A DNA stretch of 64,000 nt, from NCBI RefSeq assembly GCF_037042905.1, contig NC_087251.1, forward strand, positions 33,172,001 to 33,236,000, read 5' to 3'. The notes below the pieces were generated by a model that saw only the letters and a list, made by a program, of their open reading frames with translations, was not told the origin of the DNA and did no database searches. This document shows positions 6,053 to 51,952 of this stretch, in pieces. How positions within the stretch are numbered: position 1 is the first letter of the stretch; each line of letters starts with the position of its first letter. The translations under genes were made by a program, and so were the position numbers. Source of the stretch: Lytechinus pictus (Eukaryota).

Positions 6053-6088
6053 CTTTATTTATTTTATATATTTTCTCGATTTCTACAG

Positions 6089-9590: not shown

Positions 9591-9685
9591 CTTTCCTTTA
9601 TTGTTTTATTGTTTATTCCATTCGATAAAGGTGAAGCTCACGGACCCATTTCCCAAAGACTTCCCTTTGCAGTGACTGTGCCATT

Positions 9686-9996: not shown

Positions 9997-10131
9997 ATTA
10001 AGTAACAGGGCTCAGCAAATCAAGGCTTCCATCATGTTCATGGATCAAAGTTGCCAAATTGTAAGTCTTTACGAAACGGGCAACTGGAAACTTTGGAAAT
10101 TTAATATTAAATTATTGATTGATTTGTGCAG

Positions 10132-11559: not shown

Positions 11560-11815
11560 TGTTTATGTTTAAATATATTTACTTTGTTTTGTTTTAGTTT
11601 TGTTTTGTAATTCGTTGTATCATTATCAGTGGATTATATTTCATTTTATGATTTGTCATATTAGTTGTCTTACATTGCACTGGCCCCATGGAAGACCAGC
11701 AGCAACAATTATAGTTGCAGCTGAATATGGGCTACCAGCCGTAATTTTATCTTATTTTCATTTACCGTACATTCTATTTGTAATATTGTATGATATTTTT
11801 AATAAAACTACAAAC
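11560..11815 (+). mobile_element. 3' end of an L2/CR1-group LINE (UTR stem region and tail)
   Basis: T-rich UTR, then CTGGCCCCATGGAAGACCAGC...GCTGAATATGGGCTACCAG and AATAAAA; same architecture as the 3' end at 34118-34218. Confidence 0.5.
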
Positions 11816-14569: not shown

Positions 14570-15310
14570 CCGGTTTTGATACCAGTGAACATGTCATTAT
14601 TCTTAGGAGACTGACAGTCTGTTTTGGAATTGATGATTCTGCACTCCGATGGCAGGTTTCCTCTTACCTTGCCAACAGAGCTGTATGAAGCTGTATTCAT
14701 TACTGGCATGCAGTCTCCTGTGACTACCATTTGATATGGAGTTCCTTGGGAGTCTGTCCTTGTACCCTGTTCTTCAAATTGTACATCACTCCTCTTGGCT
14801 CTGTAATGTGGCAACATGGTCTTGGTATACACTTCTATGCTGATGACATCCAGCTGTATACCTCACTTTTGATCCAAAAGGTAAATATACAGAGGTTCGT
14901 GCAGCTGCTGTTGTTGGTGCTGAAATTTGAGGATTCGATGTTGGATGAAGGTCAACTTCCTGGAGCCTAACAATAAAAAGCGAAGTATATTGTTCTGTCA
15001 TCTCCATATATATGCGTAATTATTATGACTACAACTCCAGTCTTAATAGGTGAGGAAGCTATATATCTCCAGTATGCAAGGCTAGATCTCTTGGCGTAGT
15101 CTTTGATAGAACAATGAGCATGAAGAAACACACATCACATGTCTGCCAATCTGCATATTACCTGCTCCACAGAATTGCTGAGATCAGACACTGTCTTACA
15201 TGAAGTGGTGCAGAAAATATCATCCATGACCGGATAACCTCTAGACTGCCACTGGACTTCTGCAACTGTCTCCATGCTGGTTTACCTTCAACATGCATCT
15301 CTAGCACTTT
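14570..15310 (+). pseudogene. Degenerate L2-clade reverse transcriptase fragment
   Basis: Frameshifted remnants of YGVP.GSVL, LFKLYITPLG, HFYADDIQLY, ARSLGVVFDRTMSMKKH...VCQSAYY and LDFCN. Confidence 0.8.
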
Positions 15311-15637
15311 TTAACCTTAGGACATACTGTGAAAATTTGTTCTGCATTGGGCAGTGGCTGGGCTGGAAACCTTGTTTTGCCCATGTTTTAACCATGGAGC
15401 TAATCTGTGTTTAGCCCCATGTTTTTATCATTTCCTCTTCTGTATTCAGTATCGTTCGTCAAAGAATCTTCCAAGGCAAGGATTGGATAAAAGATGTGGT
15501 TTTCAGTTAGCACTGTGATGGTTGACTTGGGGAAAATGTACCGTTGCCAAATAAATAAATAAATCGGTAATGACCAAAAAAACTAGTAAGTGATCCAGCA
15601 TGGCCGGAAATCTGTCCCGAAAGGTAGGGGGGGACAA

Positions 15638-17600: not shown

Positions 17601-18894
17601 CCCTCATCTTATTTTAGTCACTCTGGAAAATTTGACAAGCCCCCCCCCCAAAAAAAAAAGAGAAGGTTTTCACCCAAAATGTAAGGTCATTTAGTCCAAA
17701 AATTTATGTTTTATTTCGAATGTGAATGACGCATTTTTCTCCATCATAAAAGACCAAAAATAGTAGGGGGGACATTTGATATTGTGTCCCCCCTACTATT
17801 TTTGGTAGGGGGGACACGTCCCCCCTGTCCCCCCTGGGATTTCCGCCCATGTGATCCAGTGATACAGACCCTTTGTATTTATTACAAATTGTTCTTTGGT
17901 TAACTGCCATCATTGCAGTTCTGATGGAGCTGAATGAAAGATATAATTTTGCTACAAGGATAATAACAATGTACTGATACTTATATCCGATTGATAAACT
18001 ACACTGCGTAAATCATACGTTTAATTGATTATTTGATCTGTTATAAAACATTTTGATATATCTATTTCAAGAAATTTAAGTTCAGCATGATTACAGGTTT
18101 TCCAACTTCTAAACTCTTTTTTTCTTACGGGTTCATTGAATGTGGTAATTATCATGATTATAGGATCAGCATCAATGTTTTTATATTGGGCATGTCTACT
18201 ACATATACCTTGCAAGTATATTACGTTCTATATACAGGTGTGGGTGTGTGAGCATGTTTGTGTATTTGTTCCTGAGTACAATTAACAGTTGTGGCAAAAG
18301 AAGTTTATCAAATGATTCAATCATTGAAGCTTAATATTTGTCTGCCATTGATATTAGTTTTTTAAAGATCTCATATCAAACATATACAAAGCAAATGGCA
18401 GAAAATACAAGAACACAAAAGAAATATCAAAGAACAATAAAATACATATAAAAATTTACTTGAATATTATATTTAAGGGCCAAACAATTATCATAATGAT
18501 ACAAATGCTGTTTGTACCAAAAATTATAAACATTTTAGGTGTAATTATCAAATTATAGCATAATATTGCAAAATATGCATAAATTTGCATAATTAATTAG
18601 CCGCAAACAGAAATAACCAATTTTCCCAAATGGTACATGTTAAGTATGCAGGATCTTGCAGTATCCATATCGGTGAAAGCGAATATCATAAAAGAATGTT
18701 GTAGAAATAAGATTATAAATTGTCAATTTGGCAGCCTTTTGTTTATGCAAATTAGGTGGTCAAAACATGAAAAATTGGGTTGGAAACCGGTCTTATCAGA
18801 TTCAGCACATTCAAATTAGGTGAAATAGACCGGTTCCCAACTTTTACCCCAAAATGCTCCTTGAACTCAAGTTCTCCCCATATTGGTCTTGTCT

Positions 18895-19365
18895 AAAACC
18901 CACTTAGTCCAATTCTCATTTGGTCTAATGACCACAAGGTCTAATAGCCAATTAGTCTAATGACCACTTGGTCTAATAGCCAATTGGTCTAATGACCACT
19001 TGGTCTAATAGCCAATTGGTCTAATGACCACTCGGTCTAATAGCCAATTGGGCTAATGACCACTTGGTCTAATAGCTAATTGGTCTAATGACCATTTGGT
19101 GTAATGCCCAGTTAGGCTGATCGTCACTTGGTCCAATTTTCGTTTTGTCTAATTGCCATTTCGTCGAATGTATTTCATTGTCACTTGGTCTTATTGCATT
19201 TGGTCTAATACCAGTTCCTCTAATCCCCACGTGGTCTATATTCATTTTGTCTATATTGCAGTTGGTCTAATGTGAAGTTGGTCTAACTTCTTCGGCTAAT
19301 TTATACTTTGTCTAATTTCCAGACAGTCTAACATTCATTACGTCTACATATTTGTCTAATTTCCA
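18895..19365. repeat. 16-bp-period minisatellite (TTGGTCTAAT core; homogenised 32-bp dimer at 18920-19100)
   Basis: Alternating GGTCTAATGACCACTT and GGTCTAATAGCCAATT units, degenerating rightwards; the same motif occurs at 12500-12530. Confidence 0.9.
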
Positions 19366-19539
19366 TTTTAACGGTTGATTGGGCTATCCCCATTAGGCAT
19401 TCATACATACAGTTTATTCATGTTATTTGTGTTTTTATTTTTGAACCTGAACACTGTAGAAATTTTACATTGCATTGCATGTTGTCCGCTCTATAGGCCT
19501 TAAGTTATATCAGGCCTATCCATTTTCTTAAATGTAAAT

Positions 19540-20085
19540 GAGAAATGATGGGGAAGGAACAATAAAAAAATAAGAACAATCGAAAAATAAATTAAGAGGA
19601 AATGAGAATGATAAATGAAGAAGCCCTACATTAAAAGAAAAGTTGATGAAGAATAAGAAGAAGAAGGAGAAGATCAACAACAAGAAGAAAACGAGGATTA
19701 AGAGAGAGAAAAGGGGAAGAAAACAAGAAAGCAAAAGGGCAGAAAGGGAAGACAAAAAAGGGAAAGGGGAGAGAAAATGAAGGGGAATGAAAAGGGAGAG
19801 GGAAAAGAAAAGGGAAGGGGGAGAGAAAAGGAAGGAAGAGAGAGAGAGAGACAAAGAAGGAATTAAATGGAGAGGGGACAGAAGGGAAGAGAAAAGAAGA
19901 AGGAAAAGAAAGGAGATAGAGGACAGAAAAGGAAGGGGAGAAGTGAGAAAGAAAAAAAGGGAAATAAAGAGAGAGAACATGAAGGAAAGAACAAAAAATG
20001 AACGTCATTTTTTGTTATTTTGAGAGAGGGAAGAGGAAAAAAAAGGAGAAAGAAAACTAAAAAAATAAAGAAGGGTAAAAAGAAA
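19540..20085. repeat. Polypurine (GA-rich) low-complexity tract
   Basis: About 550 bp almost entirely A/G on the plus strand. Confidence 0.9.
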
Positions 20086-22032
20086 CATACGACATCGAAA
20101 AAAAACTTATCTTGCTACCACATACAAAACTGCAATTTCTTCAAATAAAATTATTGTTGGGAACAACATTCATAATCTTAGGAATCGCTTGCCCGTTGGC
20201 CCCTCCCCCCCCCCCAATCCATTTGAAGGCAGAGGAGGCGAAGAAGTAGAACAAAAACACAGAATGAGAAGATAAAGTGAATGACTACTAACAAAATGTT
20301 CAAAACAAAATTATATAAATATATATATTATATTTTCCGTAAAGTTCAAGTATCGTCCGTAAAGGTGAATAACAACTATTATAAAAGAGGTATAGGCCTA
20401 AACATGTTTACCAGATACCTGGCATATTTCGTCTGGGGGGGGGGGGGCAAGCGACAAGGATGAGCAAGGTGGGGGGTAGTAGGCATGGACGTATAGGCAT
20501 ATTTTTTTACAAAATCCTCAAAATTGGTGATAATCATTGCCCAAATATCAACAGTTTTTAATTTGCTTTTAATTTGTTCGCTCGCTTTGCGAGGGAACAT
20601 TTTTTCAATTATTATTTAGCCTTTTTACATGATGTGAAACGTGCAGAAAATATACATTCGGTCATAAAATTTCCAATACACGAGGATATTTGGGCACCTC
20701 GCAGTCCTCGTTGCCCTGCATTTTGCAGCCCATCCCCCCATACATGTTTGGATGTGTAGGTCTAGAAGTGGCACTGAAGTTGGGAAAGGTTACCCAGGGG
20801 GTGCCCAATAAAACAGTTGGGATCTTGCTACTACTGATATTTGCTATCGGATCGGGAACATAGGATAGAAAGGGGGACGGTAATAACCAGAGGAATGTGT
20901 AAGTACGGGTATAGCTAGGCCTTTTCCAGTGGTGGGGGGTGGAGGCCCTTGATTACCGACAGATGTCAGTACCGATTACCGACGTCCGACGACCAATACT
21001 CATCTATATCCAACCCAGGAGCAGATCCAGGATTTTCGAGGGGGACATTTTTGTTTACAAAAAATCTGACAAGCCCCACCCCTAAAAAGTCTTCACTTTC
21101 ACTTGCACGTGCCTAACAATTTACACTAAAATAATATAAAAATAATAATTGCGAGCGCGAAGCGCGAGCTGATTTAAAAAAAAATAGACCTAAAACGATA
21201 CATTTTGTGCACTTAATTATGAATAGGATAGGTATCTTCCTTGATAAATTATGCGAGCGAAAATCGCGAGTTAAAAGATTTGATATTGATATTCCGACCT
21301 AAGAACTTGATAATCCAAGCAATTTTTGTAACCGTGAACAAATTGGTTTCTAATGATATATTTTTGATTTTTTATATTCCGACCTGAAAACCGGACATTC
21401 TAAGCACTTCATTTAACTATGAACAGGATGGATGTATACCTAAACTGTTACATGTGAGCACGAAGCGCCAGCTGAAATTTTTGATATTCCGGCCTAAGAA
21501 CTGGATAATATAAGCACTTTTTTGTAACCGTGAAAAAATTGTTTTTTACTAATCAATTTACGCGAGCGCGAAGTGCGAGCTGAAAATTGTTGATATTTCA
21601 ACCTGAAAACTAGACATTTATCTTAGGTATCCAACTAAAAAAATTGATGCGAGCGCGTAGCGCGAGTGAAATATTTATTGTTAAAATTATGTTTCCTAAA
21701 AGTTGTTCTTTACCTTTTTCCTGTCCCTGGTCAGCCTAGTCCGCCCTCACTATCGGTACAGAGAGCTCTAAAAGTCGCATTGCGTAAAAATCACAATTTA
21801 CCGATAAAAGTGTACAATTTATTGACATTTACCGACAAAGATGGTGGAACTAAAAAACCGAATCAGTTGGAACAGTCCCGTGTGCCTGACAGTTTATATT
21901 TTTTTCCGACAGTCTGCTGTCCAGTTTTTGTTTTCCCCTTTCTTTCTTCTTTTCCCCTTCCCCTTTTTTCTTTTTTTTCGCTTCCTTTTGTTTTGCTCGA
22001 CTCGTCAGGGGGGCAGACTGCCCCCCCTTAGG

Positions 22033-29886: not shown

Positions 29887-30694
29887 TATATACAATGATA
29901 CTCCATCATGAATCATTCGGAATACATCACCAATCCAGGTTTATATAATTATCATTCAATTTTCATGTACATGATTTATAGGCCTATATACAGAATTTGG
30001 TATATATTGTGATGCTTTTCACTAAATCTAATGCAATTTGTAATGATGAGTAATTTTTATCTAACTACTTTGATGAAACTGAATATGATGCTTATGACCT
30101 GAATTCAGAGAGAGATCCTTCAAGACAGAGCTTTGGAAATAGTTCTCCAGTTTTACAGGTATCGTTAGCTTTGTTTTTAACTTCTTCCTGAGTGATCAGA
30201 TGAATAATATTTAACTTAATGGAAGATGAAAATAAATCAAATTTTGTGGAGTAAACATTTAAACGTTAAAACAAAGGTACTGACAAACTGTATTCATACA
30301 CTGAAAATGATATTTAGTGGTTTAAGGTCTAACGAATATACGTCTGGTTGCGTAATTATACACTCCCGGTACTAGCAACGGGTTTTAGCAAAGTTTTGGA
30401 CTAAAATATCGAATCATCTTCATAAAACACTATAGTAGCTGTCTTACACTAAATGCCATAGAGGTGGCACAATGTGGAATGTGTAAAGAAGAAAAGTGAC
30501 TGATCTTTTTTTTATCAAAGCATTGGAAAATAAGATCAAAATTAAAGGATTTGCTCTACGCTTTTGTATGATTCTGGGATTTTTTTAATACGTTAAAGAT
30601 TTCATGACATCTGTGGGCAACTGCCCCGCCCCAGTCCACACTGTAAGGGCATGCGATAAGCTTTGTTATGACCATTCAACAATAAAATGTATAA

Positions 30695-31186
30695 CCAGGT
30701 GCCGCTGATCATTCTTGACTGGCGCGCCGATCTAGATTTGGTTGGCAACAGGCCCTTCTTCATTATTCTACCTGCGCCTATTTATTGGAACCAGGGGACG
30801 CAGATTATTCTTGACCGGCGCCGATTTAGAACAAGTAGTGCTGATTAGTTTTACCGACGTCACGTAAGATTCAGGCAGCGGCAATTCACAATCGACTGGC
30901 GCCGATTAAGAACCAGGAGGCGCCGATTTTTAACCAGGTGGTGCTGATTATTCTTGTCCGGCGCCGATTTAGATTTAGGTGGAGCTGATTATTCTTGATC
31001 GGCGCCGGTTAAGACTCAGGCAGCGCCGATTTATAACCAGATGGCGCTGATTATTCTTGACCAGCCCCGATTTAGATATAGGTGGCGCTGATTATCCTTG
31101 ATCGGCGCCGGTTACGAACTCAGGCAGCGCCGATTTTTCTTTACCGGTGCCGATTTGACCAGATGGCGCCGATTATTCTTGCCCGG
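30695..31186. repeat. GGCGCCGATT / GCTGATTATTCTTG minisatellite, left part (resumes at 36183-36450)
   Basis: Interleaved ~20-bp subunits; 30959-31140 is nearly repeated at 36183-36365. Confidence 0.85.
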
Positions 31187-31738
31187 TGTAGCGGCGGATT
31201 CGGTTCCACCGGCGGATACCGTATCCGCCGGCAGATATCGTTCTAAATGGCCGATATCGTTTTTAATCGGAACCATATCCGCCGGGTTTGCGCGGCTTGA
31301 AGTTTGCAGATTTGGTTCCTCGGCGGATTTGGTTCTATTGACTATATACGTGTAATTCAGACAACCTCGGCAGCGCGCGCATGCGCGGCTCTGGCAATGT
31401 CGATCGCAATTGGGGGGGGGGGGGGATTTTCGTCCGCCTTTAGTGAATTTTTATTCAGGGGCGGATCCATACAGCGTTCGACATAGGGCTCGATGGAGGT
31501 GAGGATTGATAGGAGAAATAATGTCTCGATATTTCATGTATTACATAGACCTGGCACATACGCCAAAACTTTGCTATTTATTATTATCAGATTTTGATGA
31601 AATTTTCATCATTTTGTTTTTTTTAATTTGTATACTATTTTCAGTCCGCAGTATGCATCGATCTCTTTAACTGTGCTTTTTCACACCAATGTTAGTGTTA
31701 GTTTGCCAGACTGTTTGGCGAAAATGTGCACCCCCATA

Positions 31739-34700
31739 CAGTGCGTATAAAAAAAAACGGGACAGTTTTGAAAAGTCTATAAAAAAATTGTCTCAAATGA
31801 TGATATCTATATTTTGATGTTAATAGATGCTCTGAAATCTTATCTTTGAAATGCCATTAAAAAAAAATTGTTCATGCTTGAGCGAACACGGGACATTTTG
31901 TCGGGGGTTCAAAGAGAGGCTTGCGCGAAAATGGCAGAAATTAGAAATTTGATGATCAGACTTTTTGCTAATCAGCAGGCTTCCTTTTTACCTTTTCATT
32001 ATTTTCGCCATGATTTTCGAATTATGCTGTCAAATTTTATTTACAAATGAATTTATATACTTGAATTATTTTGTTTTTTCATTAAAACTTCTTTAACCTT
32101 TGAATTTTCCTTCATAAGTAAGAAAAGAAGACTTTTGTCAACCCAATGAAGAAGATTTGCGTTATTAATCATGTTAATTGGGAGAACTTGTAGTTATTCA
32201 AATCGTATTTTATTAGGTGAAAAAATTACGTTATGGTACCTTTATAATAGAAAAACATGAATCCTATTTTCAAGGGGTCATTGATTCCTTGACCAAGTTT
32301 AATTAAGTGCTTGACAGGGCAAACAGGAAAGGATTCATGTCTTTCAATGGCAATGTATTGAGTAAATTAACAATTTACAAACTCTGTTTATTCCAGATTG
32401 TGAATTTAAATTTTATGCAATCAAAAAGGAGTATGTTTTGAAAGAACTATTACATATTGATTGTTCGAAAGCGGTCGGAGTAGATGGCATTCACCCTAAG
32501 TTTCTTAAGCTGGCAGCAGAGAGTATAGCTGGCCCTTTAACCCATTTATTTAATGCAACTTTACAAACTAGTGTTATTCCAGAAGATTTTAAAACAGCAA
32601 GAATTACTCCTGTTACATAAGGGAGGATCATTTGATATTGACAATTATAGACCAATTTCTGTGCTTCCAGTCCTGTCCAAAATACTAGAGAGAGCAATAC
32701 ATGATCAATTGTATAAGTACTTAAATGTAAATGATCTACTTGCTAATTGTCAGTCTGGCTTCAGACCGTCTTATTCTACTGCCACTTGTCTAACTGAGAT
32801 TACAGACTTTTTGTATGATAAAATGGACCGAAAACATGTTACTGGTGGTATTTTCTTGGACTTACGCAAAGCTTTTGATGTTATTCCTCACAATTTTATA
32901 CTTGCAAAACTTAAGTACTATGGTATTACTGGCAATGAATACAACTGGATGGAATCGTATTTAACAGACAGAAGGCAATTTGTAATGATTAACAATTGTC
33001 GCAGTGAATTTTTGAAGATAAAATCAGGTGTCCCACAAGGATCTATACTGGGTCCATTGATATTTTGTATTTTTATTAATGACATGTGTAATTTGAAATT
33101 GCATGTACATTCTAAAATGTCTCTTTATGCTGATGATACCGCCATTTTTAATCACGGTGAATCAATTAAGGAGGTACAAAAGTATTTGCAAGATGATTTT
33201 GATTCAATAAGTAAATGGCTAGACTTAAATAATATGCATTTACACCCGCAAAAAACAAAAGCCATGGTATTTGGTCAAAAGAAAAAGTTGAGGGGTGCTC
33301 ATTTGTCAGTGAAATTCAGGAACATACAATTAGAAAATGTAAAAAAGATTAAATACTTAGGTGTCATGCTCGATCCGGGCTTGACTTGGTGCGAACATAT
33401 TACTAATATCGTTTGTAAAATATCTCGGGCAATATGTTGTGTAAGGCGGATTAAGCACTTACTGTCCTTTGATATTATGAAGAAGCTGTACTTTTCTATG
33501 GTTTTACCTTACATTGATTACTGTATTACATCTTGGGGAAGCAGTGCAAAAATACATTTAGATAAGATACAAAAACTTCAAAATAAATATGCCAGAATGC
33601 TTTTGAAAAAAAATTATAATACATCACAAATTTCTTTGTTGCAGTCACTGAAGTGGCAATCAGTAGATCAGCGTATAAAATATCAGTATTGTGTTCTTGT
33701 ATATAAAATAATGAATGATTTAGTTCCAAATTATTTAAAACCTTTAGTATGTAAACGGCCCGTGAAATACAGGACACGGTATTCTTTACGATGCCCCCTT
33801 CAGCTTCCCAAAGCTAGAATTGAACATAAAAGAAAATCTTTCGCATATGTCGGACCCAAATTATTTAATGCACTTCCTTCAAATTTACAAGTTTGTACCT
33901 CCTTGTTAGTTTTTAAAAAATTATGCAAAGCCTTTCATACGAATTGATAAAAAGCGAAATGATATTCCTTTGATTTACAATGCTATGTATGTTAAAAATT
34001 GTCACTTCCCACTCTATATTTTGGTGTTAATTGTTTCTGATGTTAGATATTTTGTATTTTGTATTTTTGATGTTGTTTGTTGTTGTTGTTCATAGTTATC
34101 TTGACATGTATTTTAAACTGCAGGGCGCCTTTGTAAAGCAGTTTTAAGAACTGAACAGGCCTACCCTGCAGTATAAAATAAATAAAACAAAACAAATAAA
34201 TAAATAAATAAAATAAATTTTGAAGGAGCTAGATATGGCAGATCGGATAAAATGTATATATTTAAATAGTTGTGAGCGAGCAAGCAAAAATTTCCACTTT
34301 TTTTAATATCCAATTCTGTGATAGATTTTGACAAAATATTTAGAAAATAAATCATATTTCACTTTCTATCTTTCCTTGTATTCACTTTCCACTTTTTTAT
34401 TGGGGGGGGGGGGTAACACCCCGAGCCCCCACCCATCTGTATGCCACTGTTTAAAAGCACCATAACCTTTGTAGCACACAATGGAAGGATTAAAAAAATA
34501 CACGCTTTCCCATACTTCGGTTTAAAAATTTTGTTTTTGCTTATAGAATGAATATTGAAAGCTAAAAGAGAACATGTTAAAAAGAAACAACAGAACAATT
34601 CAGGCAAATAAACAGATTCGAAAATGAATTTTAACAGCATAATTCGAAAATTATGTCAAAGATAATTAAAAGGTTAAAAGTCTGCTAAATAGCAAGAAGT

Positions 34701-36027: not shown

Positions 36028-36973
36028 ACGTATGTGAGTGAAGGATATCGCGATAGCGCAAGAACGATATCTTCCGAAGAGAGTGGCCTTTTTTGGTACT
36101 GAATCCGCCGGAGTAGAACACGATCCGCCGGCGGATTTGGTGCCTAGAACAGTATCTGCCAGGCGCAGGATCCGCCGGTACACCGGCGCCTATTTAGATT
36201 TAGGTGGAGCTGATTATTCTTGATCGGCGCCGGTTAAGACTCTGGCAGCGCCGATTTATAACCAGATGGCGCTGATTATTCTTGTCCGGCCCCGATTTAG
36301 ATTTAGGTGGCGCTGATTATCCTAAATCGGTGCCGGTTAAGAACTCAGGCAGCGTCGATTTTTCTTGACTGGCGCCGATTTATAACCAAATGGCGCTGGT
36401 TATTCTTGATTGGCGCCAGTTATATGCAGGTGGCAGCGCACTGCTGATTATTTTTAAGAGGCGAAGTTGTTGGGAAAAGGGTAGTTAAAAGAAAAGATAA
36501 GGAAGATGATGTGATTGTGCTTTGCTGGGGGATAGTCTTTCCTTTACTGTTGCTAATATTATATCAGTGTATGATTTTTTTTTAAGCGGCGCCTTTCTTT
36601 TCTTTCCTTTTTCAGTTTTTCAAGCAGCGCCTTTTCTTTCTTTTACTTTTCTTTTATTTTTTTTTGAGATGAGCGGCGCCTTCGGCGCCGCTCAAATATT
36701 AGGGGGGCGCGCGCCCCCTGCGCCACCCCCCTGGATCCGCCACTGGTTAGACGTTATCACACTGTAATAAGATGGAAAAGGGGCTTATCAAAGGTATGTT
36801 TCACAGGAGACATGTTGTTCGTCAAAAGACGCGCGACGCCAAGACAATAATAATGAATTAAAGGCAACAATCAAGCGGAGTACAAGGTTACGTGTGGTTT
36901 ATTGAGATTGTCGCGGCCAAGAGGCCGATCACATTTAAGTATCGATATCACATAATTTACAACACGATTACTA

Positions 36974-37190
36974 TCGCGATAGCTCAGTCGGGAGAGCGGG
37001 GGACTCGTATTCCGGTGACCCGGGTTCGATTCCCACTTGGTGCGCTAGTGCCCTTTGGTAAGGCATTAATCCTCAGTACCAGGTCCTTCGGAGGGGACCT
37101 TAAGCCGTCGGTCCTCTGGTTGCTTGCTTACAAGCATTCATGCTTTCTTAGCAATCAGGTAAAAAAATTAAAAAAAATAAAAATGATAAA
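36974..37190 (+). mobile_element. tRNA-derived SINE inserted into the 3' LTR
   Basis: A box TAGCTCAGTCGG, B box GGTTCGATTCC, central GTGCCCTTTGGTAAGGCATT...GGGGACCTTAAGCCGTCGGTCC, A-rich tail; the LTR sequence resumes after it. Confidence 0.85.
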
Positions 37191-40100
37191 CAACATAACA
37201 CATTGGCGTGACCCATTTTCTTCTTTCCTTCCTAAAACCAAATGCATTGTAAATTATACTTTTCAATTGTATCCTTGAATCAACGTATGGAACATATACT
37301 TTACAACTATATCTTAACATCAACCTATGAAACACTAGCATTTCCAAAACGATGATGTGTAAAGAAAACAAAAATGAAAAAATGCTTATCAACAACTTCA
37401 AACACGGGAAATATGCAAGTGGCATCATTAACATACATGTAGGCTTCATTTAAGACAATCTTATCACTATTTATAAAAAGCATTGCAAAAAACTTAATAA
37501 GCAAACACACCGTATAACATCTCAAGCAATTAGGTGCAACAATGTGTTAGTATACATTGAATACATCATTTGTATCAGTCTTATCATCAATTGGTAAACA
37601 CATAATACTTTAAACCTACATAGATTGTTATCATCACTTCTATCACTCTCATCAGCAATTGGGAGTTACATCACAATATCAAATACACATTACTTTAAAG
37701 GTACATTAATTATATCAACACTATTATCGATCATATAAACTTGCTAAAAAACACACATAAATCACTAACAAAGTCTTCCAGTACCAAAACTTAACAACCA
37801 CATTAAACTCCCCGCATTCGAGTGTCTCAAGTCTGTATAACATGGTATAAAATCAATCATCAGTGAATTGTATATTCCTATGCTCATTCACCCTTTTCTA
37901 TAAAACAACAAAAACAAAAATGCTAAAAAGCAAATATTCTCTCTCAACAAAAACTCCTAGCCCTTCAACAAAACAGGGTAAGCTGAGTATTGTAAACTAA
38001 CATCAAATACAAATGCAGCTCCACTACTTCACTGTAGCATTAAAAAAAGAAAACATGTATACAGTTAGGTAAAATCAGCAGCAAAAATCACTAAACCTCA
38101 CCTGTAAGAAACATCGATATATCCCCCAAAAATTTAACATTAATAAAATGTGTGGTAAGCAGAGTAACAATCACAGGTCATAATTCTCCCTCTGTTTAAA
38201 AAAAACAAGCAAACAGGTAAAATGGCATACAAACAATTATAATATCTTAAAGTTTGTCAACAGTTACATAAACCATACACATATGTAACATTATTTAAAA
38301 GAAATTAGGCATAAAAACATATCCCATAAAAGTAGCTTAGTATAAAAGAAACCATTATCATGTATGAAAATAAACAATCAAATTAAATACACACCACATT
38401 CATCTGATGCAGCCATGTAAGCAATCTTTCACACAATAATCAATATCATAAAAACAAACATCATTCATCATGCAATCTTTCACAACCTTAACAAATACAG
38501 CCTCATTACAATACCCGGGATAAAGCATGTTTCATAAAAACAAACAGTGTATAAAAAAAATCAAATTTCTATGTCCAATGCCTAACCCCGAAACGAGGAA
38601 AATGTCAAGTTAAAAAGAAACATGTGAATAAGTTTATACACAACTAGGTACTGCAAGCAGATAAACCTGTCTTTAAAAACATAAGGTATACATAAAATAC
38701 AATTATATAAAAATAAAACAATCCTGCGACAAGTGGTGCATAAAAAGTCAATACACAAGCAAAGTGGGCTTATGGGCTACAAACTAAAGTGAGGCATGTA
38801 GCATGACGGGGGGGGGGTGCTGAGAGTCAGGTGTATTGTCCAGAGTACTCTCACTAAAAACAAGGTTACATCTGGGGGAAGACTCGTTGCAATGCTAGGG
38901 TGTGTCAAAATCTGGTAGATGTCACTCACAGCCTTGAGAAGGTGTGCAGGCCTGGTTGGGCAAGGGAATGCAGCACGACAATGGGAGTCTAGAAACTGGG
39001 GATAATCAGGGCATGCAAAGGGAGGGGCACTATCATCTCTGTGGAACTGGGAAAAGGGCCTATGATAACTAACATCAATGTCTGGGGGGACGGTTTTACA
39101 GTTAGTCAGAGGGGGGCCAAAACGAGCGGCATGTGGAATGCCATCCTCAGTATAGGGATCAAGTGGGCTGTAGGCTGTCATCAGAGGGGGGTCATTGGAT
39201 CTAGTGGCTGCGATATGGGGGCTAAACTCATGGGCACTGGAAGATGCGTCTGGGGGGCTACTGTGGTCATGGGCACCACGAGCTAAGGCTGTTAGAGGTC
39301 GAAGTCCATGGGCATCAAAATCGATCATCTGGGGATCAATATCATCTTTGGTAGCTGGCCAAGAGATAGGATGGGGATCATCTCAATAGCTAGATGTACC
39401 CGAGACTTAGAGCTGTCAATGGCCTGTGAATGAATGGTGGTGAGTGATGAACTGTCAATGGCCTGTGGATGAATGTTGGTGGGTGATGTGCTGTCAATGG
39501 CTTGAGGATGAGTGTTGGTAGGTGACTGCAATGTAGAGACCTGTGTGGGCATGAGATATTGTTTGGTATTGTTCGGTGTCGTATTTGTATGACACTGGAT
39601 CTGGGTGTGTTGTGTGGAGGTCTCCAACTGACTGAAGCGGTCGTCGATTTTGGGCCTACTACTAAACAACTGTGTATCGTCAAGGAAACTGACTGAGCTC
39701 GACTTTCTGTATGAATTGAGTGAGCTACCCCAGTCACCGATTGGGTAGGGGGATTGATATTGATGGTCGGTTCAGGCATGCGCAGTGTGTCTAGCGAATC
39801 TGACATCGAATCGCGTGTGGAATTGGATACTGAATCGGACACTGAATCAAGCGAGCAACGCTCGTCAGGTGACTCCAGCAACATCAACTGGTCAAAAGGT
39901 TGTTGCATACGCAGTGCGTTATACGAATCGGTCATCGAATGGTATATCGAATCGGACAACGAATCGAGAAAGCAACGTGTGTCAGATGACTCTGACGACA
40001 ACTCTGGCGAGCAACGTTTGACAGACGGCTCGGAAAATAGCAACTTGTCAACCGACAGTTGCACACGCTGTGTATCATGCGACTCGGACGTCAGATCAAG

Positions 40101-40579
40101 GGAGTGAAGATTGTTAAACAACTCAACCGTAAACGATTTGTCCGGCAATTTGGATGTGTGGCGTTTGTCAGAGATATCAAATGAGCGGCATTGGTCAGAA
40201 GAATCTAGTTCTACAACTAAAGACTTGGATGTGTTTTCTTTCGAGCAAAGCACGTTCGCACTATCACTAACAGTGACGCTTGAAGGAGAATTAGACTGCC
40301 AATGCAAGTTGTCATCCCAAGCAGACACATTATCATGGGAAACATCAACATTCAATTCATATTCATTCTTGGAAACACAATCTGGAGAGTACGGCTCACA
40401 CTCTTCAGGACGAGTCAAAGTCCCACAAATGGGTACGCGAGATCGTTGTTCCGTAACAATGGCAATGGGTGTCGGCCTGGACACCACATGCCGTTCAACA
40501 TCACCAGGCCCACCAGCACGGGCTGGCTGAACTGCCAACAAATTTCCCTCACACACCAGTGAACTAGAGTCAACGTTCT

Positions 40580-41000
40580 CAGGGTCATATACAAAGACTG
40601 AATCACCATGGAAGATAACTTCATGTCTGGATGGTCGCACCATTATATCATTACATTCCATATACGGTGCACCAGCAACAACGACATCTTTGTCACTTAC
40701 AACCACTCCGAGAAACTCCATCTAAACACCCTTTTTGGTAAAGAGGCTGACCTCTGTGTAACCAACAACATTGTATTCGAAGGCAGCATCAATACAATAT
40801 TCAATAATCATAAAGATCATATAAAGCATAATCATCCATCACTTTCTCTAGCTCCAAATCATCTGCAACCTGCTCACTGGCCTGGTCATACCTCATATTC
40901 ACCTGATTACCACTCTTCACCTCTACCTTCACTCTTCTTTCATCATGTCTTACATATGCATAAAAATAAGGTACATTCAAACAAGGAATTGACTTCTCTC
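40580..41000 (-). pseudogene. Degenerate retropepsin (Gypsy aspartic protease)-like coding remnant
   Basis: VPYFYAYVRHDERRVKVEVKSGNQVNM ... NVVGYTEVSLFTKKGV*MEFLGVVVSDKDVVVAGAPYMECNDIMVRPSRHEVIF follows the invertebrate Gypsy protease pattern (LDSGA..NM ... VVGET.L ... LVV..LDVD.LAG.PFM..NDI.VRP). It continues into a Ser/Asp/Pro-rich ORF to 39390. Confidence 0.65.
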
Positions 41001-41087
41001 TCGAGTCATGACTACAAGAGCGCTGAAGCGGCTCCGCACTAACCGGGTCCCTTCGCGGGGGGCCGGTGCTCTTGGCTGCGGCCGACA

Positions 41088-41970
41088 TAGCCTCTTGTCG
41101 AGGCCCTGGCAGGTGCTTTTCGAGCGAAGCGAGGGATTTCCTAATTCGCGAAACGAATTAGGCCTGGCGCGAGCCAGGGCCTCTTGACATCTGAGCTGAA
41201 TTATATATTCATCTGGAACGTCTTCCTAGTGAATATACACGAGTTGTAATATCACCGGTCACCTAGTAAACCAATGAAATGTCAAAGCTGTTTCGTCCGG
41301 GGTTTGGAATACTATAGACATAGTAGTCCACTATTCTGCAGGGGATTCAATTAATTGCGGGACACTAAAGTAAAGGGGATATAACCAGCAAAATGCTACA
41401 AGCAGTGGTACTATACTACTACTACTGGCCGTAAAAGACCCATCACCGCCCCTAAACTTACCGGAAGATACTGGTCAGCCGCCGGTCAGACTTGAGTCAA
41501 GGGGAAACAACTCTACTCCAGCATTCCCTCACTGCACCGCGGAGACCTATGGAGAGAACCTATGGAATCGCATGAAAGATAACATTTTTTCCATATCCTG
41601 TGGGTAGATTTACAAAAACATATCGTCCTTTCAGTGCAGATTTTATTTTATCAACTTGCAAATCCTTAAATTGGTCAATATTCAGCATTTTAGAGGCATA
41701 TTCAACGCTCTTTGACATTTCGTCGTCACTCTTCGCCAAGAATCCACGGGTCGCCATTCAATATGTCATAGCAGCCCGCGCTCTCATTGGATGATTTTCA
41801 CCGACCAGTTTGTGGTCGGTATATTGGTAAAAACAATCAAATAACAAAAGAAAGTCGGTGAAATTCGGGTCAGATGTCAAGAGGCCGTCTCGCGGCGCTC
41901 TGCTTCGCTCTCTCCCTTGCTTCGCCATGTTCGCTCGGAAAGCAGCCGACAGGGCCTCGACAAGAGGTTA
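41088..41970 (-). mobile_element. Academ(H)-like internally deleted DNA transposon carrying a RecQ-type helicase N-terminus
   Basis: Imperfect ~110-bp TIRs TAGCCTCTTGTCGAGGCCCTG / CAGGGCCTCGACAAGAGGTTA. ORF 41560-41757 FKDLQ...ALKGRYVFVNLPTGYGKNVIF gives the Q motif and Walker A of RecQ-like SF2 helicases; a VVSP motif-Ia remnant follows. No clear TSD. Confidence 0.7.
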
Positions 41971-42339
41971 CTGTACATAACTTATATACCAATTGATGGG
42001 ACTACAACACACACTATAAATATTAAAGAAACCTAGACCTATCACCGATAGAACACGGAGCGCCTGATCCCTATAGTTGGGGTTAAGTTACCTAGAGTCT
42101 GGAATAGGTTTATAGGACTATTTAAAGGACTGGCTTTGCTCAGACCCAATAGCTGCCACCACGCCAAGACAATAATAATGAATTAAAGGCAACAATCAAG
42201 CGGAGTACAAGGTTACGTGTGGTTTATTGAGATTGTCGCGGCCAAGAGGCCGATCACATTTAAGTATCGATATCACATAATTTACAACACGATTACTAAA
42301 TTAACATAACACATAACACACTTGGGCGTGTCATCGGAA

Positions 42340-43282
42340 ATGAAGTCATATCTAGATGACTATTTTGGGAAAATTAATGAACGGTTGTCATCGTTGGAAC
42401 GCCAAATTACTGTACAGAATACAAGACTTGAACATAGCTAGAATGGAGGAATTGGTTGCATCGCTAAATTTTCAAGCAAAAGAAATGGATGATTTGAAAG
42501 CGAAACTGAGGAAAGTACAAGAGGAAAGTGATATGAAGGGGGAAAAACTTGAAGCTGAAATTGATAGACTTTCCGCTTACATATCGCGAGAGAACCTCGT
42601 CTTTTTGGGAATCCCAGAAAGTGGAGAGGGTGATGAGAATACGAAGGAAACTTTGAATAGATTTCTCGTCGAGAAACTGAAGTTGAGACAAGATTTTGTT
42701 AAACAAATTGAATATCAACGAGTTCATCGGGTGCAAGCTATACACAGACCACGCCCCATCAAAGCACGGTTCCTTAGATTTGCAGACAAGTTGACAATTG
42801 ACAAGAATGCTAAATTGTTGAAGGGGAGTAAGATGTACATTGCACAAGATCTGCCCAAACGAATTCGAGAAGAAAGGAAAGCGCAGGCACCGGCCTTGAA
42901 AGCGGCACGGAACGCAGGGAAGCTTGCTTATTTCTCACGGGCGGAGCCGACTAAACTCTTCGTCGCTGGAAAATGGATCCCACGGGAGGACCAAGTGGAG
43001 CTCATCGGAATATGGGGGAAACAGAGTGGAGCAGGAATGAATAACGCCTCCCTGCAGATACATCGGGATCAGGCAGGAGTTAGGATGGAGCGGAATGGAG
43101 GAATACAACGAGGAAAAGCAGGTGACAGTGCACCGTTTACAGCGAGGAAGATATGGGCAAGGAGTGACGAGGGTCTGACCGAAAACGGCATCGAAGCAAT
43201 GGAAAGCACCGGCGCTGAAGCAACGCAACATGAGGGATATCTCGCAGGAGCAGTAGGAGGAGAAAACGTCAAAGAATCGTAA
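42340..43282 (+). CDS. LINE ORF1p-like protein (coiled coil + RRM + CTD, L1/transposase_22-like), frameshifted near 42430
   Basis: MKSYLDDYFGKINERLSSLERQITVQNTRL from ATG 42340 joins the 42356 frame ...SRENLVFLGIPE...YQRVHRV...RPRPIKARFLRFADK...IAQDLPKRIREERK, typical ORF1p RRM/CTD motifs. Confidence 0.8.
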
Positions 43283-45334: not shown

Positions 45335-48300
45335 CTAGATTTTAATTCGTCATGAGGACGAATTAGGTGGTCTGTCATGATTTTTCATTCATTGTCGGCT
45401 AATGTTGTATAAAATGAATCCCGGGAATGAATCATTCAGATATGATTGATAATCTTGATCATAGACATTAAAGGAATAAATTTTGACCATTGCTAAATGT
45501 GATTATAAATGTAGTGATGACAATCGTGATGATTATAATGATGGTGGTGATAATGCAATATGTTAAATACGAAATAAAGTTAGGAGCACGTAAAATGCCT
45601 TAAAAACTCTCCAAAAATCTCAGACGATTTTACCGAAATTGGCTTTCCAAAATTGCGCAATGAAAGGGGCCTCAATTTTCACAGCAGCTAATTTTTAATC
45701 GACAGTTTGATGTTTTTTATGCAAAATCTTGTTAAAAATTCTTTGTACTTTGAGCATTTTTTTTTTAAATTTCACCCACTGACATTTCACAATGTCAGTG
45801 GGTATTAATTTCACAGAATACTTGAAAATTCATAGGTGATACTTTTTAAAAGCTAAAATATCTTAAATATTTTTGTTCAAATTTTCTGCTACATTTCAAT
45901 AGATTTAAATGAGAAGTTTCATAATGCTATAATTTCACAGCATTCACATCAAAACTCATCAGTGATGTATTTGATAAAAGAACCAGATTTTTTTGTAAAT
46001 GTTTGCCAAATTTCTGAAAATTTTTAAACATTTCAAATAATATTTTCCGTCAAAACTTTTCAATATCCATTTATTAATTGTGTATGACTTTGACATTTAC
46101 TTGAAAATTCTTTCTTGATGATTTTTACTGAATAAAGTCAGGTAAAAGATTCAAATACTGGCAATTTTCCCGCAAAATTTCGGGAACATGTGTAATTAAC
46201 TAAATTGCACAATTTTTTTCATTTCACAGAAGGTACCTGAAAATTTGTTATACGTTATATTAAGTAAAAATGAACAAACAGAAAAAAATCCAGGAATTTC
46301 CGGAAAATGTCCGGAATGAAAATGTTCAACCCAATAGCGTTTAAATATTGCAGCGTTTACTAAAAAATACATAAATGATGTTTTACAATGTTAAAATTGC
46401 CCCTTAAAAAGTTCCGGCAAAATTACAAAAATTGTCCTACATAAAAAAATGCAAGGCAAGTGGGCTTGATATTTTCAGGAAGACTGTACAATTGGTTAAT
46501 AAAACATTTCTCTAAAGAATTTCGCAAAAATTACGTCCAGAAAAAATTTGCAAAAATTTAAACACATCATAACACATTGATGCTGTGGTCAAAAGTCAAA
46601 ATTATTCCACGTTATTTGTAGAGAAATGTCTTCACTATATCATATCAAAATTTGGAAGAAAACTGACCAGTAATAACGAAGATACGGTCAAGTACGTTGA
46701 CGTTTGTTGCGGAAATATGTAATTTTCACTAATAACTTAAAATTGACAAAATCTCCAAATGAGATATTGAATATATAAAAGAGTGAGAAAAAATTTGGGG
46801 TCAACGGACTCCCTGAAGAGCTACAGTGAATTTTATATAGGCATATTTTTGCCCATTTACGCGCGCGTAATGCAAATTTGAATGGACGCGCATTCCCGTA
46901 TTATTGGTCGTAAGAGGCTGAATGAGGTATCAAATTAATCAGAAGATAATGGGCAATGGAAAGACATAAAATAAATGATGACTCAAAGATGCATACCGAT
47001 GGTAGGTGCAAAAACGCGCACGCATACCTGTGCGCGCGCAAATTCTTGACATGCTCAAAATGACCAGAAACGTACCCAAACTTGACCACGGTCCATTTAG
47101 GGAAACTTAAAATTTTGACGCGCGCGTACGTGCGCGTTGTGACCTTTGCATGACCTTTGGTGATATGTCCTGATGACCTTTTCAAAATGGCCGCCAAATT
47201 CCTTCCAAATCAGTGTTTTAACAGGTAAATCCTTAAATATATATACAAATAAGGCCTGCAATGTATCCAACTATATGTTTTCATGTTCATTGAGCACTAA
47301 AATATATGAATCAGATAAGTTGAGCCATTGGAAATGAGGATTTTTGGTAAAAAAACAGCGTTTTGGGGTCATTTTTGTAAAAATTGCTCCCAAATCACAA
47401 TTTATACATAAAACCTCAATAATCTATTCATCTACAGTTTTTCATATGTCTAAATATTTGTTTTCATGGCCACTTATTTCAACAATAGATAAAACAGACA
47501 TGTTTTGTGATTTTGTACTGTCATTTTTAATAGAAAAATAATGTTTTCTGAAATTTTTGGAAAAAATTACTAAATACAGCCTGCAAATATGCAACTACAG
47601 CTTGTAATCTGGCTATAACCTTGTTTTTCTTGCTATTTGTAAGTTACAATCAATTGTATTGTCTGAATTAAAAGAATGTGTATTTTAGTGGATTTTCGTC
47701 AAATATGACCCCCCAAAAAAAAAAAAAAAAAAACATGAATACAATGAAGGATTTCACGCGCATGCATTTAATGCAACTATTGCTGTATATATATATATAT
47801 ATATATATATACTGTATAAGTGGATATTTTCAGTTTTTCGCAGAGTATCTCCCATCAATTATAACTAAATGAAAAAAAATACAAGAGGACAAGTGTACAT
47901 ATTTTATGTTGTCAAACATTTGGGAAAACAAGTTCCCGCTAATTTCACAAAAATAGCATTTTGGCACTATTTTACAATTGAACGGCATAAAATGGGTGTC
48001 CAATCTATCTTGTTAGATATTTTTAAGAGTGCTGAGTTCAAATATTAGCGTAAGTAAAAGATTAGAAGCATCGTCATGGTGTTAATTAAAAAACAAGAAA
48101 AAAAAAAGATTTTGAAAAATATCGGTATACAGAATACATACTTTGAGCCTATAGCATATTGGGGAACATTTCATTACCATTTGCATTCCACAAGAACAAT
48201 TGACCAAAACTCACTTTTACCATGGTAACTGTCAGATAAAACAGCGATTGTTAAACTTCTGACAAGTTTTTTTTTATGAAACCCTGGGTGGCAGAAAATA

Positions 48301-49255
48301 TAATTCAGCACCAACGTTTAAATGGTTCATAGCCAATAGATTCAGTACTTGCTTGGGAGTTTATGTTATGGCATGATATTCAATCAAAATATTTCATCAA
48401 TTAAGTTCATATCAATAAATTCACAGTCTCTATAATTATTCAGAATGAATGTTTCACATGCTGTTTTATACTACATAATATCTACATAATAATGGGTTAT
48501 CTTGCCATATTCCCCATGATAATGATGATGGAACTGCTGGGCATCAATAAAAATGGGTGATAAGGATACTGTAGACAAAACATGAATAAGAATGGAAATT
48601 TCCCTTTATCCTCCAGACATATTCATGTAAGTTGAGTTTAAGAAGATAATGTATACAGGTAATTATATGTAAGACATAGACTTGCTAAGAGTCAGACTCC
48701 CAAAACTGACTACTTCTGAAAATCAGACAATAATCATGATAATAGCAACAATGCCTGTCTGTGTATTATCACTTGGGGGACGATTTGTAATTTTTTTCAA
48801 AAGCTAGACTAACATAGTTATTGATGGAACTAAGTTCCAGGAAGAATATACTTATAAGTGGTTAATTTAAAAAGCAAGGAAATATGCATGGGATCTATGA
48901 AATGCTTGGTAAATTCTTTTCCCTTATGTTTGACAGCTTAAGATATGTACATAAGTCTGGTATTTGATATTATTTTTTTCATTTTGTTATAAATAATGTG
49001 GATATATTCTCAGTAAGACTGAAAACATTCATATATATATATATATATATATTTATTTATTTATTCCATAAAACGATCAACCTTTTTTGTATATCCAACC
49101 CCCATTTTTCTCAAGTCTTACTTCACTTCATAAACTGACCAATTCATGGTCTTTTGAGAACATTACAGACTGTCAAAAGAACCAGAAATCAGAGACAAAA
49201 AAATCATGAAGGTCCCACATATAGGGGTTGGACATACATATTTTACGGAATGCCC

Positions 49256-49286
<31 letters not shown>

Positions 49287-51952
49287 CACACAGCAATAGT
49301 TGCATGACTTGTATGCATCTGATATCCTGCTTTGAAATTATTTATTTTTTGGGAAGGGGGGGGGGGGGTAATATTTGACAAAAATCCACTAAAATACATA
49401 TTCTTTTCATTAAGATGATACAATTGATATTTGTAACTGTCTACCAAATCACAATAAAAAACGAGGTTATACCGTTATAGTCAACTTACAAGTTGTAGTT
49501 AGATGAATATATGCAGTATGTATTCAGTCACTTTTACCCAAAAAATACAGAAAATGTGATTTTTGACTGAAAATGACTGTACAAAAGACCAAAACATGTA
49601 TGTTTTATGTATTGTTGGACTCAGTGGCCATGAAAACATGTATTTACACATATAATAAACTATAGATGAACAGATAATCAAGTTCTATGTACAAAAAATT
49701 GTCATTTGGGAGCAAATTTTACCAAAAATGGCCCCAAAACGCTGTTTTTTACCAAAAATCCTCATTTTAAATGGCTCAACTTATCTGATTCATATATTTT
49801 AGTGCTCAATGACCATGAAAACATATAGTTGGATACATTGCAGGCCTTATTTGTGTATATATTTAAGGATTTACCTGTTAAAACACTGATTTGGAAGGAA
49901 TTTGGCGGCCATTTTGAAAAATCGCTTGGAACCAATATCAAACTACATCTTAGGTCAAAATGGTTGTCAGATTTGGGTTCAGCAGCAAAAATGGCAATAG
50001 AATCCACCCGTTTGAAATTGAATATCCAAAAAAAAGGTTTTATTTGCCCACCCCTATTAAGAGTCAAATGTGGCATGAAATCATATCTCCTATTCATACT
50101 CTATTCGAATATGAAAAGAAAAATTGGGGTCAACGGACTCCCTGAAGAGCTACAGTGAATTTTATATAGGCATATTTTTGCCCATTTACGCGCGCGTAAT
50201 GCAAATTTGAATGGACGCGCATTCCCGTATTATTGGTCGTAAGAGGCTGAATGAGGTATCAAATTAATCAGAAGATAATGGGCAATGAAAAGACATAAAA
50301 TAAATGATGACTCAAAGATGCATACCGATGGTAGGTGCAAAAACGCGCACGCATACCTGTGCGCGCGCAAATTCTTGACATGCTCAAAATGACCAGAAAC
50401 GTACCCAAACTTGACCACGGTCCATTTAGGGAAACTTAAAATTTTGACGCGCGCGTACGTGCGCGTCGTGACCTTTGCATGACCTCTGGTGATATGTCCT
50501 GATGACCTGTCGCCTGAACTTGATATGATGCAAATATGGATGATTTTTTATGATTAGTTGCGATGATATGATCAATCATTTAATTTTACAAAATGGCGCC
50601 TAGATGACGTCATCATGATTTGATAACCTTGAAAAGATTCGATTCCCATGTCCATAATGATGCCCATACATGACATGAAAATCAAGGAAATTGACATGCC
50701 CGATGTTGAGATAGAGGTGGACAAAGATTTGGCAATAAAAATAAAGAAAATTCTGACGAATATAATAGGTGATCTATCATCTTAATGACAGACCACCTAA
50801 AAAGGACAAAAAAAAAAAAAAAAAGGGGGTCCAGCGAGGTTTGAACAACCGAACCCTGGTATACCAGTCAGGTGTGTTATCCAGTCGGCCACAGTGTGTT
50901 TGACAAGCACAGAGAGCAAAATAGGAAACATATTGTCAACTTGACATTGAATGTACATTTTTGCAATTCCAAATTGGCATGATGACGAAACTCTACAAAT
51001 TCTAGTTTTGAGAATAGTACAAGCTTTAAAATGGAAGAGTGGAGATATTGTCTAAAGGATACATTCTAAGCTAAAACATATTGAAAATTTGGCGAGAACA
51101 GACCAAGATTTACGGAATTAAAATCAATTTAAATGACTGTGGTGAAATCATGAAACAGAAAACACTTGTTTTTAGTTCCGACGCCATTTTGATGACGTCA
51201 CGATGTAATTAAGAGTCAAATGTGGCATGAAATCATATCTCCTATTCATACTCTATTCGAATATGAAAAGAAAAATTGGGGTCAACGGACTCCCTGAAGA
51301 GCTACAGTGAATTTTATATAGGCATATTTTTGCCCATTTACGCGCGCGTAATGCAAATTTGAATGGACGCGCATTCCCGTATTATTGGTCGTAAGAGGCT
51401 GAATGTGGTATCAAATTAATCAGAAGATAATGGGCAATGGAAAGACATAAAATAAATGATGACTCAAAGATGCATACCGATGGTAGGTGCAAAAACGCGC
51501 ACGCATACCTGTGCGCGCGCAAATTCTTGACATGCTCAAAATGACCAGAAACGTACCCAAACTTGACCACGGTCCATTTAGGGAAACTTAAAATTTTGAC
51601 GCGCGCGTACGTGCGCGTCGTGACCTTTGCATGACCTCTGGTGATATGTCCTGATGACCTGTCGCCTGAACTTGATATGATGCAAATATGGATGATTTTT
51701 GATGATTAGTTGCGATGATATGATCAATCATTTAATTTTACAAAATGGCGCCTAGATGACGTCATCATGATTTAATAACCTTGAAAAGATTCGATTCCCA
51801 TGTCCATAATGATGCCCATACATGACATGAAAATCAAGGAAATTGACATGCCCGATTTTGAGATAGAGGTGGACAAAGATTTGGCAATAAAAATAAAGAA
51901 AATTCTGACGAATATAATAGGTGATCTGTCATCTTAATGACAGACCACCTAA
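45335..51952 (-). mobile_element. Stacked Helentron/HINE (DINE-1-like) non-autonomous rolling-circle elements
   Basis: Minus-strand 5' ends TTAGGTGGTCTGTCAT-TAAG-ATGAYAGATCACCT (subTIR plus its inverted copy) at 51952 and 50800; one 3' end ATGACAGACCACC + hairpin TAATTCGTC-CTCAT-GACGAATTA + AAATCTAGTT at 45378-45333; shared ~390-bp core at 46790, 50118 and 51270. Confidence 0.8.
47179..50056. mobile_element. Long-TIR (hAT-like, TAGGGGTGGGC terminus) element nested in the Helentron stack, left end truncated
   Basis: 47179-~47930 is the reverse complement of ~48915-49919; the right arm continues to GCCCACCCCTA at 50056; the matching outer ~135 bp is missing on the left. Confidence 0.7.

Follow-up and report, generated by a model that had tools for sequence, protein, structure and literature searches.

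A probable degenerate copy of a non-autonomous Troyka-type long terminal repeat retrotransposon with a broken protease-like domain in Lytechinus pictus

The window analyzed here is a stretch of Lytechinus pictus DNA of 64 kb in its full length, and the subject of this report is a long terminal repeat (LTR) retroelement that lies at positions 36837-42328 in the minus-strand orientation. The 5' LTR (42162-42328, minus strand) is 167 bp long and has the form CGCCC...TGGCG. The 3' LTR (36837-37208, minus strand) has the form CGCCA...TGGCG and is 372 bp long because it contains a short interspersed element (SINE) of about 212 bp; once this is subtracted, the left LTR copy comes to about 160 bp. The two LTRs are identical at 137 of 137 bp (42162-42298 versus 36837-36973). 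On the sense strand they start with CGCCCAAG and CGCCAATG, and CTTGGCG terminates both. A primer-binding site (PBS), TGGTGGCAGC (42152-42161, minus strand), adjoins the 5' LTR with zero spacer. This 10-mer occurs only once in the whole window, both strands counted, and we take it to be of the tRNA-Leu type. A polypurine tract (PPT), which is an 18-nt pure purine run (37216-37233, minus strand), lies 7 nt off the 3' LTR. A reading of the letters alone (hereafter the original prediction) had described two direct repeats of about 167 bp that are alike over the first ~135 bp, a PBS abutting one of them and a PPT by the other, and CGCC(C)AA...CTTGGCG ends instead of TG...CA; all of this is borne out. 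Rfam gives no match across 36700-42500. As separate observations, CA precedes both LTRs in the sense direction (GACA at 42329-42332 and GTCA at 37209-37212), and the outer flank at 42329-42332 resembles the PPT spacer in three of four letters, either by chance or as an unprocessed end of the complementary DNA.

The internal region is 4,953 bp long. When the window was searched with 26 Troyka-type query segments, only the protease segments matched, and no similarity to reverse transcriptase (RT), RNase H (RH), integrase (IN) or Gag was found. In the control, the RT, RH, IN and Gag queries cross-match strongly in a metagenomic locus, L002, described below. The absence of RT and integrase that the original prediction stated is thus upheld by a directed search. 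What the element does carry is a protease-like domain in two pieces. The N-terminal half (40807-41079, minus strand) is recognized by tblastn with two related proteins, P0023 (E 5e-30) and P0003 (E 1e-26), and has K-S-G at 40917-40909, where active relatives carry the catalytic D-S/T-G. The C-terminal half (40530-40799, minus strand), to which P0023 and P0003 align as well, is in a second frame, with a frameshift near 40800-40807, and contains an in-frame stop at 40722-40724. The end of the protease domain is followed by a Ser/Asp/Pro-rich tail in a 443-codon open frame (39390-40721, minus strand), and the tandem units of the tail have periods of 39, 117 and 129 bp, each divisible by 3. The open reading frame (ORF) listing holds further Pro/Asp/Thr-rich frames of 148 and 201 codons (38777-39771, minus strand), which are probably the frameshifted remainder of the tail. 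Pfam gives no family above cut-off for the frames in 38777-39771 or for the protease-like ORF of the window. The 3' part of the internal region (37234-38776, minus strand) is AT-rich and has no 100-codon open frame inside it.

Relatives of the domain were collected by searching with codons 1-100 of the 443-codon frame, which gave 22 clusters at E<=0.001. With each cluster counted once (n=22), the catalytic column holds Lys or Arg (K/R) in six, Asp in five and no residue in 11, which are fragments. Thus, like the window with its K-S-G, these six clusters lack the catalytic Asp of active retropepsins, and the site is Lys or Arg in 6/6 of them, with no other residue. Identity among these K/R proteins lies at 38-68% for the domain and at 12-29% for the tail, and the listed proteins are 304-745 amino acids long. 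One of the relatives, P0003, is the sole named homolog among eight looked up; it is XP_041456044.1 of Lytechinus variegatus, an annotated host gene model. P0017 and P0019 have D-S-G together with a Troyka-type CX2CX9HX4C knuckle, and Pfam gives a protease family for five of the 22 relatives, every one of the Asp type. A midpoint-rooted tree was made of 19 rows, with five near-duplicates and rows with <40 residues before the anchor motif left out. In this tree a 99/99 branch sets the six K/R proteins apart from the 11 other rows, together with P0006, which is truncated at its N-terminus, and the C-terminal half from the window.

The intact relatives P0023 and P0003 are predicted to have a retropepsin fold. 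In an AlphaFold2 model of P0023, residues 41-170 show blocks with a predicted local distance difference test (pLDDT) score of 77-96, while confidence in the tail is low. The model matches Ddi1 and retroviral proteases in Foldseek (E 5e-7, 4rgh), and its superposition on Ddi1 7d66 gives Z 14.3 and a root-mean-square deviation of 2.5 over 114 aligned residues. The Atlas features of P0003 score 0.95 to RVP_2. The K/R position of the relatives aligns with the catalytic Asp of Ddi1, in a weak match (E 0.04). When the dead P0003 domain was modelled as a homodimer, values of 0.28 and 0.23 were obtained against a mark of 0.32, and this is counted neither way. A metagenome scan with the alignment of the dead group returned two loci, both of them polyprotein-type Troyka without visible LTRs and both degenerate: L001 (1-2571), with an RT motif IADD and an integrase HHCC motif, and L002 (559-4179), with a knuckle, DTG, an RT motif LADD and an integrase HHCC motif. 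An origin of the domain in a Troyka polyprotein, which has a CX2CX8-10HX4C knuckle and an IADD/VADD/LADD RT, is indicated indirectly by its relatives, since P0017, P0019 and L002 carry the knuckle and L001 and L002 carry IADD or LADD. There were no related loci in viral contigs, and word-index protein searches matched only P0003 and P0002 and found no further pseudo-proteases.

Elements with such ends are known. Troyka is defined by CG..CG termini and target site duplications (TSDs) of 3 bp (Kojima 2025, J Gen Virol, PMC12440569). Troyka LTRs are 100-400 bp long, start with CGCCA in 573/603 cases and with CGCCC in 2/603, and end with TGGCG in 522/603; the internal regions span 1,553-7,691 bp, and 62 of the 70 non-autonomous Troykas come from sea urchins (PMC12440569). 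Troyka codes for Gag-RP-RT-RH-IN (RP being the protease), including a DDD/E integrase (PMC12440569; for the integrase also PMC11673190), and its 3-bp TSDs have been confirmed through empty sites in four species groups (PMC12440569). Gong and Han (2024, Virus Evol, PMC11673190) describe this lineage under the name Kuafuorterviruses, which take in Troyka, and give IADD/VADD/LADD as their RT motif alongside an integrase. Over the first ~400 letters of six example Kuafuortervirus records, TGGCG is joined directly to a TGGTG(G/A)CAGC PBS in three; in the other three the PPT side is visible, where TGA/TAA and then a stretch of pyrimidines come after TGGCG (PMC11673190).

The present element has the 5'-CG..CG-3' termini of Troyka, which are mostly of the form CGCCA...TGGCG; its 5' LTR opens with CGCCC, a rare variant, and its LTR and internal lengths (167 and 4,953 bp) fall within the published ranges. 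The Gag-Pol of autonomous Troykas, with its knuckle, RP, RT, RH and IN, is missing; the element is short and without functional Gag-Pol or Pol, like non-autonomous Troykas. We consider it quite likely that it is a non-autonomous LTR retrotransposon of the Troyka type (Kuafuortervirus), present here as a degenerate copy. Since the 3-bp TSD is missing, it is filed as Troyka-type or Troyka-derived, and formal membership is provisional. The original prediction was right to call it a non-autonomous LTR retroelement and to point to Troyka, a link that the CG..CG termini make correct; it was wrong in holding that Troyka lacks integrase, for Gag-RP-RT-RH-IN is encoded. Both the CG ends and the missing RT and integrase are already explained by the Troyka and Kuafuortervirus papers, and no new integration chemistry is involved.

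Two other repeats are nested in the element, and they can be compared with contigs from four public runs of a related organism, which share 0.11-0.12 of words with the window. The related organism has the same element at ~90% without the larger insert; its record 12 differs at 89 letters and shows 25 gaps across 40197-41086. The larger insert is a high-copy terminal inverted repeat (TIR) element of 880 bp at the start of the pseudo-protease ORF (41088-41970), with the left end TAG, a 41-bp TIR of 88% and an inner 25-bp inverted repeat of 92%. In each of the four runs, the related contigs pass over 41087-41966 (880 bp) and have 29 other letters in between, and depth in the nested element is about 1,800-14,000, compared with about 120-800 in the adjacent element bins. 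It contains a possible RecQ/DEAD-helicase-like fragment of 64 codons (41566-41757, minus strand), whose match to PF00270 (E=0.014, 15.6 bits) does not reach the curated cut-off, and it might be AcademH-like. AcademH TSDs are given as 9-10 bp in an extract of PMC10045372; none of this length was found at the nested element, where the site is altered, with 29 letters replaced, and no TSD is seen. The second insertion is a tRNA-headed, A-tailed repeat, the SINE (36974-37185, plus strand; right boundary approximate), which is present only in the 3' LTR. ARAGORN calls its head tRNA-like at 36972-37043, and the bin 36924-37204 reaches a depth of 340,000-600,000 in the related contigs, a very high value that marks it as a SINE-like host repeat. 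An extract of the work on Helenus (PMC12859917) describes tRNA-derived sequence in non-autonomous LTR elements, and the present element resembles Helenus in being a non-autonomous LTR element with tRNA-like sequence in an LTR. It differs in that only one of its LTRs has the tRNA-like part, which comes from a repeat of very high copy number, so a Helenus-like reading is ruled out and a later SINE insertion is indicated. Single contigs of the element in the related organism have a depth of about 180-370, compared with 17-21 for the lowest listed contigs of the same runs; this suggests collapsed near-identical copies, although depth is not copy number.

The flanks of the element are unlike each other. 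On the left lies a piece of another high-copy repeat (36745-36829), outside the element, with a depth in the related-organism contigs of 1,862-20,372 at 36807-36815 and loose ends at 36745 and 36806. On the right, where depth in the first bins is 125-343 and thus far below that of the left flank, an L1-ORF1p/FP25K-like open frame (42356-43282, plus strand) lies outside the element with no second ORF (ORF2) behind it, and Pfam gives nothing above cut-off for this frame. The original prediction had suggested insertion into the 5' part of the ORF1 of a long interspersed element (LINE). This is unsupported, the right flank being without ORF2 and the left flank being a different, deeper repeat. No joint that skips the whole element, as an empty site would, is present among the 15 listed of 261 joints in the related-organism contigs. 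Taken with the indels at the LTR starts, the flanks suggest that a flanking deletion took place, that copies recombined or that the locus was misassembled, and fit less well with a LINE ORF1 into which the element inserted cleanly.

Several points weigh against the Troyka-type assignment or complicate it. At the only copy tested, no TSD of 2-8 bp was found at the CG ends, where the flanks are CGA and TGT on the plus strand (ACA and TCG in sense), as the original prediction had also seen in noting the lack of a clean TSD; the 3-bp TSD that defines Troyka is therefore absent here. Candidate duplications with shifted boundaries (GCG) were rejected: with the ends moved by up to 4 bp, two 3-mers arise in 324 combinations, which is chance level, and both cut into the CG terminus. 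The initial ~30 nt of the LTRs differ by several indels beside 137 identical bp, a pattern that a single insertion does not account for. With 0 differences over 137 bp, LTR divergence is capped at ~2%, which is odd beside two nested insertions and a broken ORF. An autonomous partner sharing these LTRs was not found, and no genome-wide copy search was made. The six K/R relatives are assumed, on their part, to lie between LTRs. Finally, the ORF of the window is broken by a frameshift and a stop, and any function would be that of the family and not of the present copy. It was also observed that the stretch over which the LTRs diverge is 42299-42328 versus about 37183-37208, and that identity stops exactly at the SINE position. 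These indels, the SINE, the nested TIR element and the pseudo-protease ORF had all escaped the original prediction.

The missing TSD and the indels at the LTR ends could have arisen as an assembly artefact, through the joining of two copies or through long-read indel errors. The differences are indeed mostly 1-bp indels in an AT-rich stretch of short repeats, and the reads covered were those of a related organism, no run sharing >0.12 of words. However, in that organism the alignment of one contig (record 24) likewise breaks off at 42295, the point where the LTRs diverge, and 23 letters remain over, and the LTR start may thus vary naturally; we give the artefact a small but real chance. A more radical account, proposed in the original prediction, is that the element is mobilized by a partner with an unusual integration mechanism, which has a tyrosine recombinase or PD-(D/E)XK nuclease in place of a DDE integrase and thereby produces both the CG ends and the lack of a TSD. 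The non-CA ends and the absence of a TSD at the present copy would fit, but Troyka, whose ends are the same, codes for a DDD/E integrase and leaves 3-bp TSDs, as seen through empty sites in the four species groups, so that a partner of this kind is unnecessary. In addition, the active relatives of the protease remnant sit in RT-RH-IN polyproteins, and the fetched Troyka-type loci have the HHCC motif. The LTR-PBS-PPT-LTR layout here is the standard one, whereas DIRS and Ngaro elements are built with split direct repeats or with inverted ones at their ends. A partner with an unusual enzyme is hardly credible.

The protease domain raises a question of its own, namely why a domain without its nucleophile persists. 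The conservation of a folded domain that lacks the nucleophile, beside a tail that evolves fast and repeats in units divisible by three, points indirectly to selection for a non-catalytic function. It can be argued instead that an autonomous Troyka underwent an internal deletion and left the protease-like ORF as a remnant without function, and that K/R is an accident passed on by descent. With its stop, its frameshift and the insert at its start, the copy in the window looks like such a remnant, and only six K/R clusters were found, to which the word-index searches added none. A remnant would not, however, be expected to keep its domain at 38-68% identity next to tails at 12-29%, to be represented by proteins of 304-745 amino acids, or to have Lys or Arg at the site in every cluster. 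The tail-repeat periods divisible by 3 also speak against decay without function, as does the one large indel listed in the tail of the related organism, a net 93 bp, although this is a single case with a one-in-three likelihood of arising by chance. We therefore regard the functionless remnant as unlikely. It is also conceivable that the dead protease was co-opted by the host as a restriction factor, dominant-negative against Troyka, and that the LTRs were retained by chance; P0003 is, after all, a host gene model in L. variegatus. The ORF of the window, however, lies between near-identical LTRs with PBS and PPT intact, the depth in the related organism suggests collapsed near-identical copies, and the present copy is decayed, which together make host co-option very improbable.

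If the element is of the Troyka type, its history may be pictured as follows. Transcription would start from the 5' LTR, and the RNA would be packaged and reverse-transcribed by an autonomous Troyka, with a tRNA at the PBS and with the PPT, after which the DDD/E integrase of the helper would insert the product; judging from the family, this is very likely. The helper integrase would join CG-3' rather than CA-3' ends, normally leaving a 3-bp TSD. After insertion the element would have gained the SINE and the TIR element and acquired the stop and the frameshift, and the TSD was probably lost through flanking deletion or recombination with another copy.

What the protease domain might do in this cycle is more speculative. 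A retropepsin functions only as a dimer, to which either monomer supplies one Asp, and for this reason a dead domain kept under selection could pair with the protease domain of the helper, a proposal to which we give somewhat less than an even chance. Such pairing might damp or time the maturation of helper particles, or it might carry the product of the element, perhaps with its RNA, into them. The trans-dominant poisoning by active-site-defective monomers of HIV protease is an analogy for such pairing, and it would also suit the restriction-factor reading. In its full form, the proposal would be that a non-autonomous Troyka lineage turned its protease into a pseudoenzyme by fixing a basic residue opposite the catalytic Asp of the partner and fusing a disordered tail, and that this pseudoenzyme heterodimerizes with the Gag-Pol protease of the helper and thereby parasitizes or throttles helper particles. 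We put this forward tentatively and think it more doubtful than the pairing itself.

Non-autonomous LTR elements are usually thought to need cis signals only. If the proposal is true, a lineage that keeps an inactive form of a helper enzyme under selection would have a protein-level route to exploit or regulate its helper, and would provide a natural protein-level interface between satellite and helper in an LTR retrotransposon. It might also explain the abundance of non-autonomous Troykas in sea urchins. With the CG termini already published, the K/R pseudo-protease is the remaining notable feature of the element. No paper on it was found, and it is absent from the main text of the Troyka paper (PMC12440569), the Troyka supplements and Repbase being outside the search. 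The present copy is decayed and is a poor exemplar of the pseudo-protease lineage.

Several other repeats were observed elsewhere in the window. A 468-codon RT frame (32541-33947, plus strand; RVT_1 E 7e-38), which we take to be of the non-LTR type, lies between inverted arms of 110-124 nt (31749-31872/34793-34916 and 31984-32093/34571-34680); this is probably a TIR element into which a truncated LINE has inserted. At 5694-5864 two tRNA-like sequences of 72 nt, separated by 27 nt, form an inverted repeat of 92%, and ARAGORN calls both tRNA-SeC. At 12582-18865 there is a pair of inverted arms, 100-129 nt long and with about 6 kb between them, directly followed by a tandem array with a 16-bp period at 18859-19178; the region 12582-19178 is likely a TIR transposon beside a minisatellite. 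Two repeat blocks with a period of ~41 bp (30693-31198 and 36160-36463) are 93% alike over 199 nt and lie 5.2 kb apart. At 46727-51507 a 300-nt repeat is present three times, with nested inverted arms at 47179-47811/49265-49920.

The element can also be compared with further known systems. With the retropepsins (the RVP domain of Ddi1 and the retroviral proteases) it has in common the modelled fold of the relative P0023 and the RVP_2 features of P0003, whereas the present lineage has Lys or Arg for the catalytic Asp, no Gag before the domain, no RT after it and a long low-confidence tail. The Kuafuorterviruses (PMC11673190) are autonomous, with PR-RT-RH-IN (PR denoting the protease), whereas the present element has only a dead, broken protease domain; they nevertheless share with it the TGGCG-PBS junction in three of the six partial records and a similar spacer on the PPT side in the other three, and they share the IADD/LADD RT motif with active relatives of its protease remnant. 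The non-autonomous sea-urchin Troykas (PMC12440569) differ in the 3-bp TSD, which is absent at the present copy, but have the same CGCCA/TGGCG termini, lengths within the same range, no functional Gag-Pol and, as is likely here also, an echinoid host.

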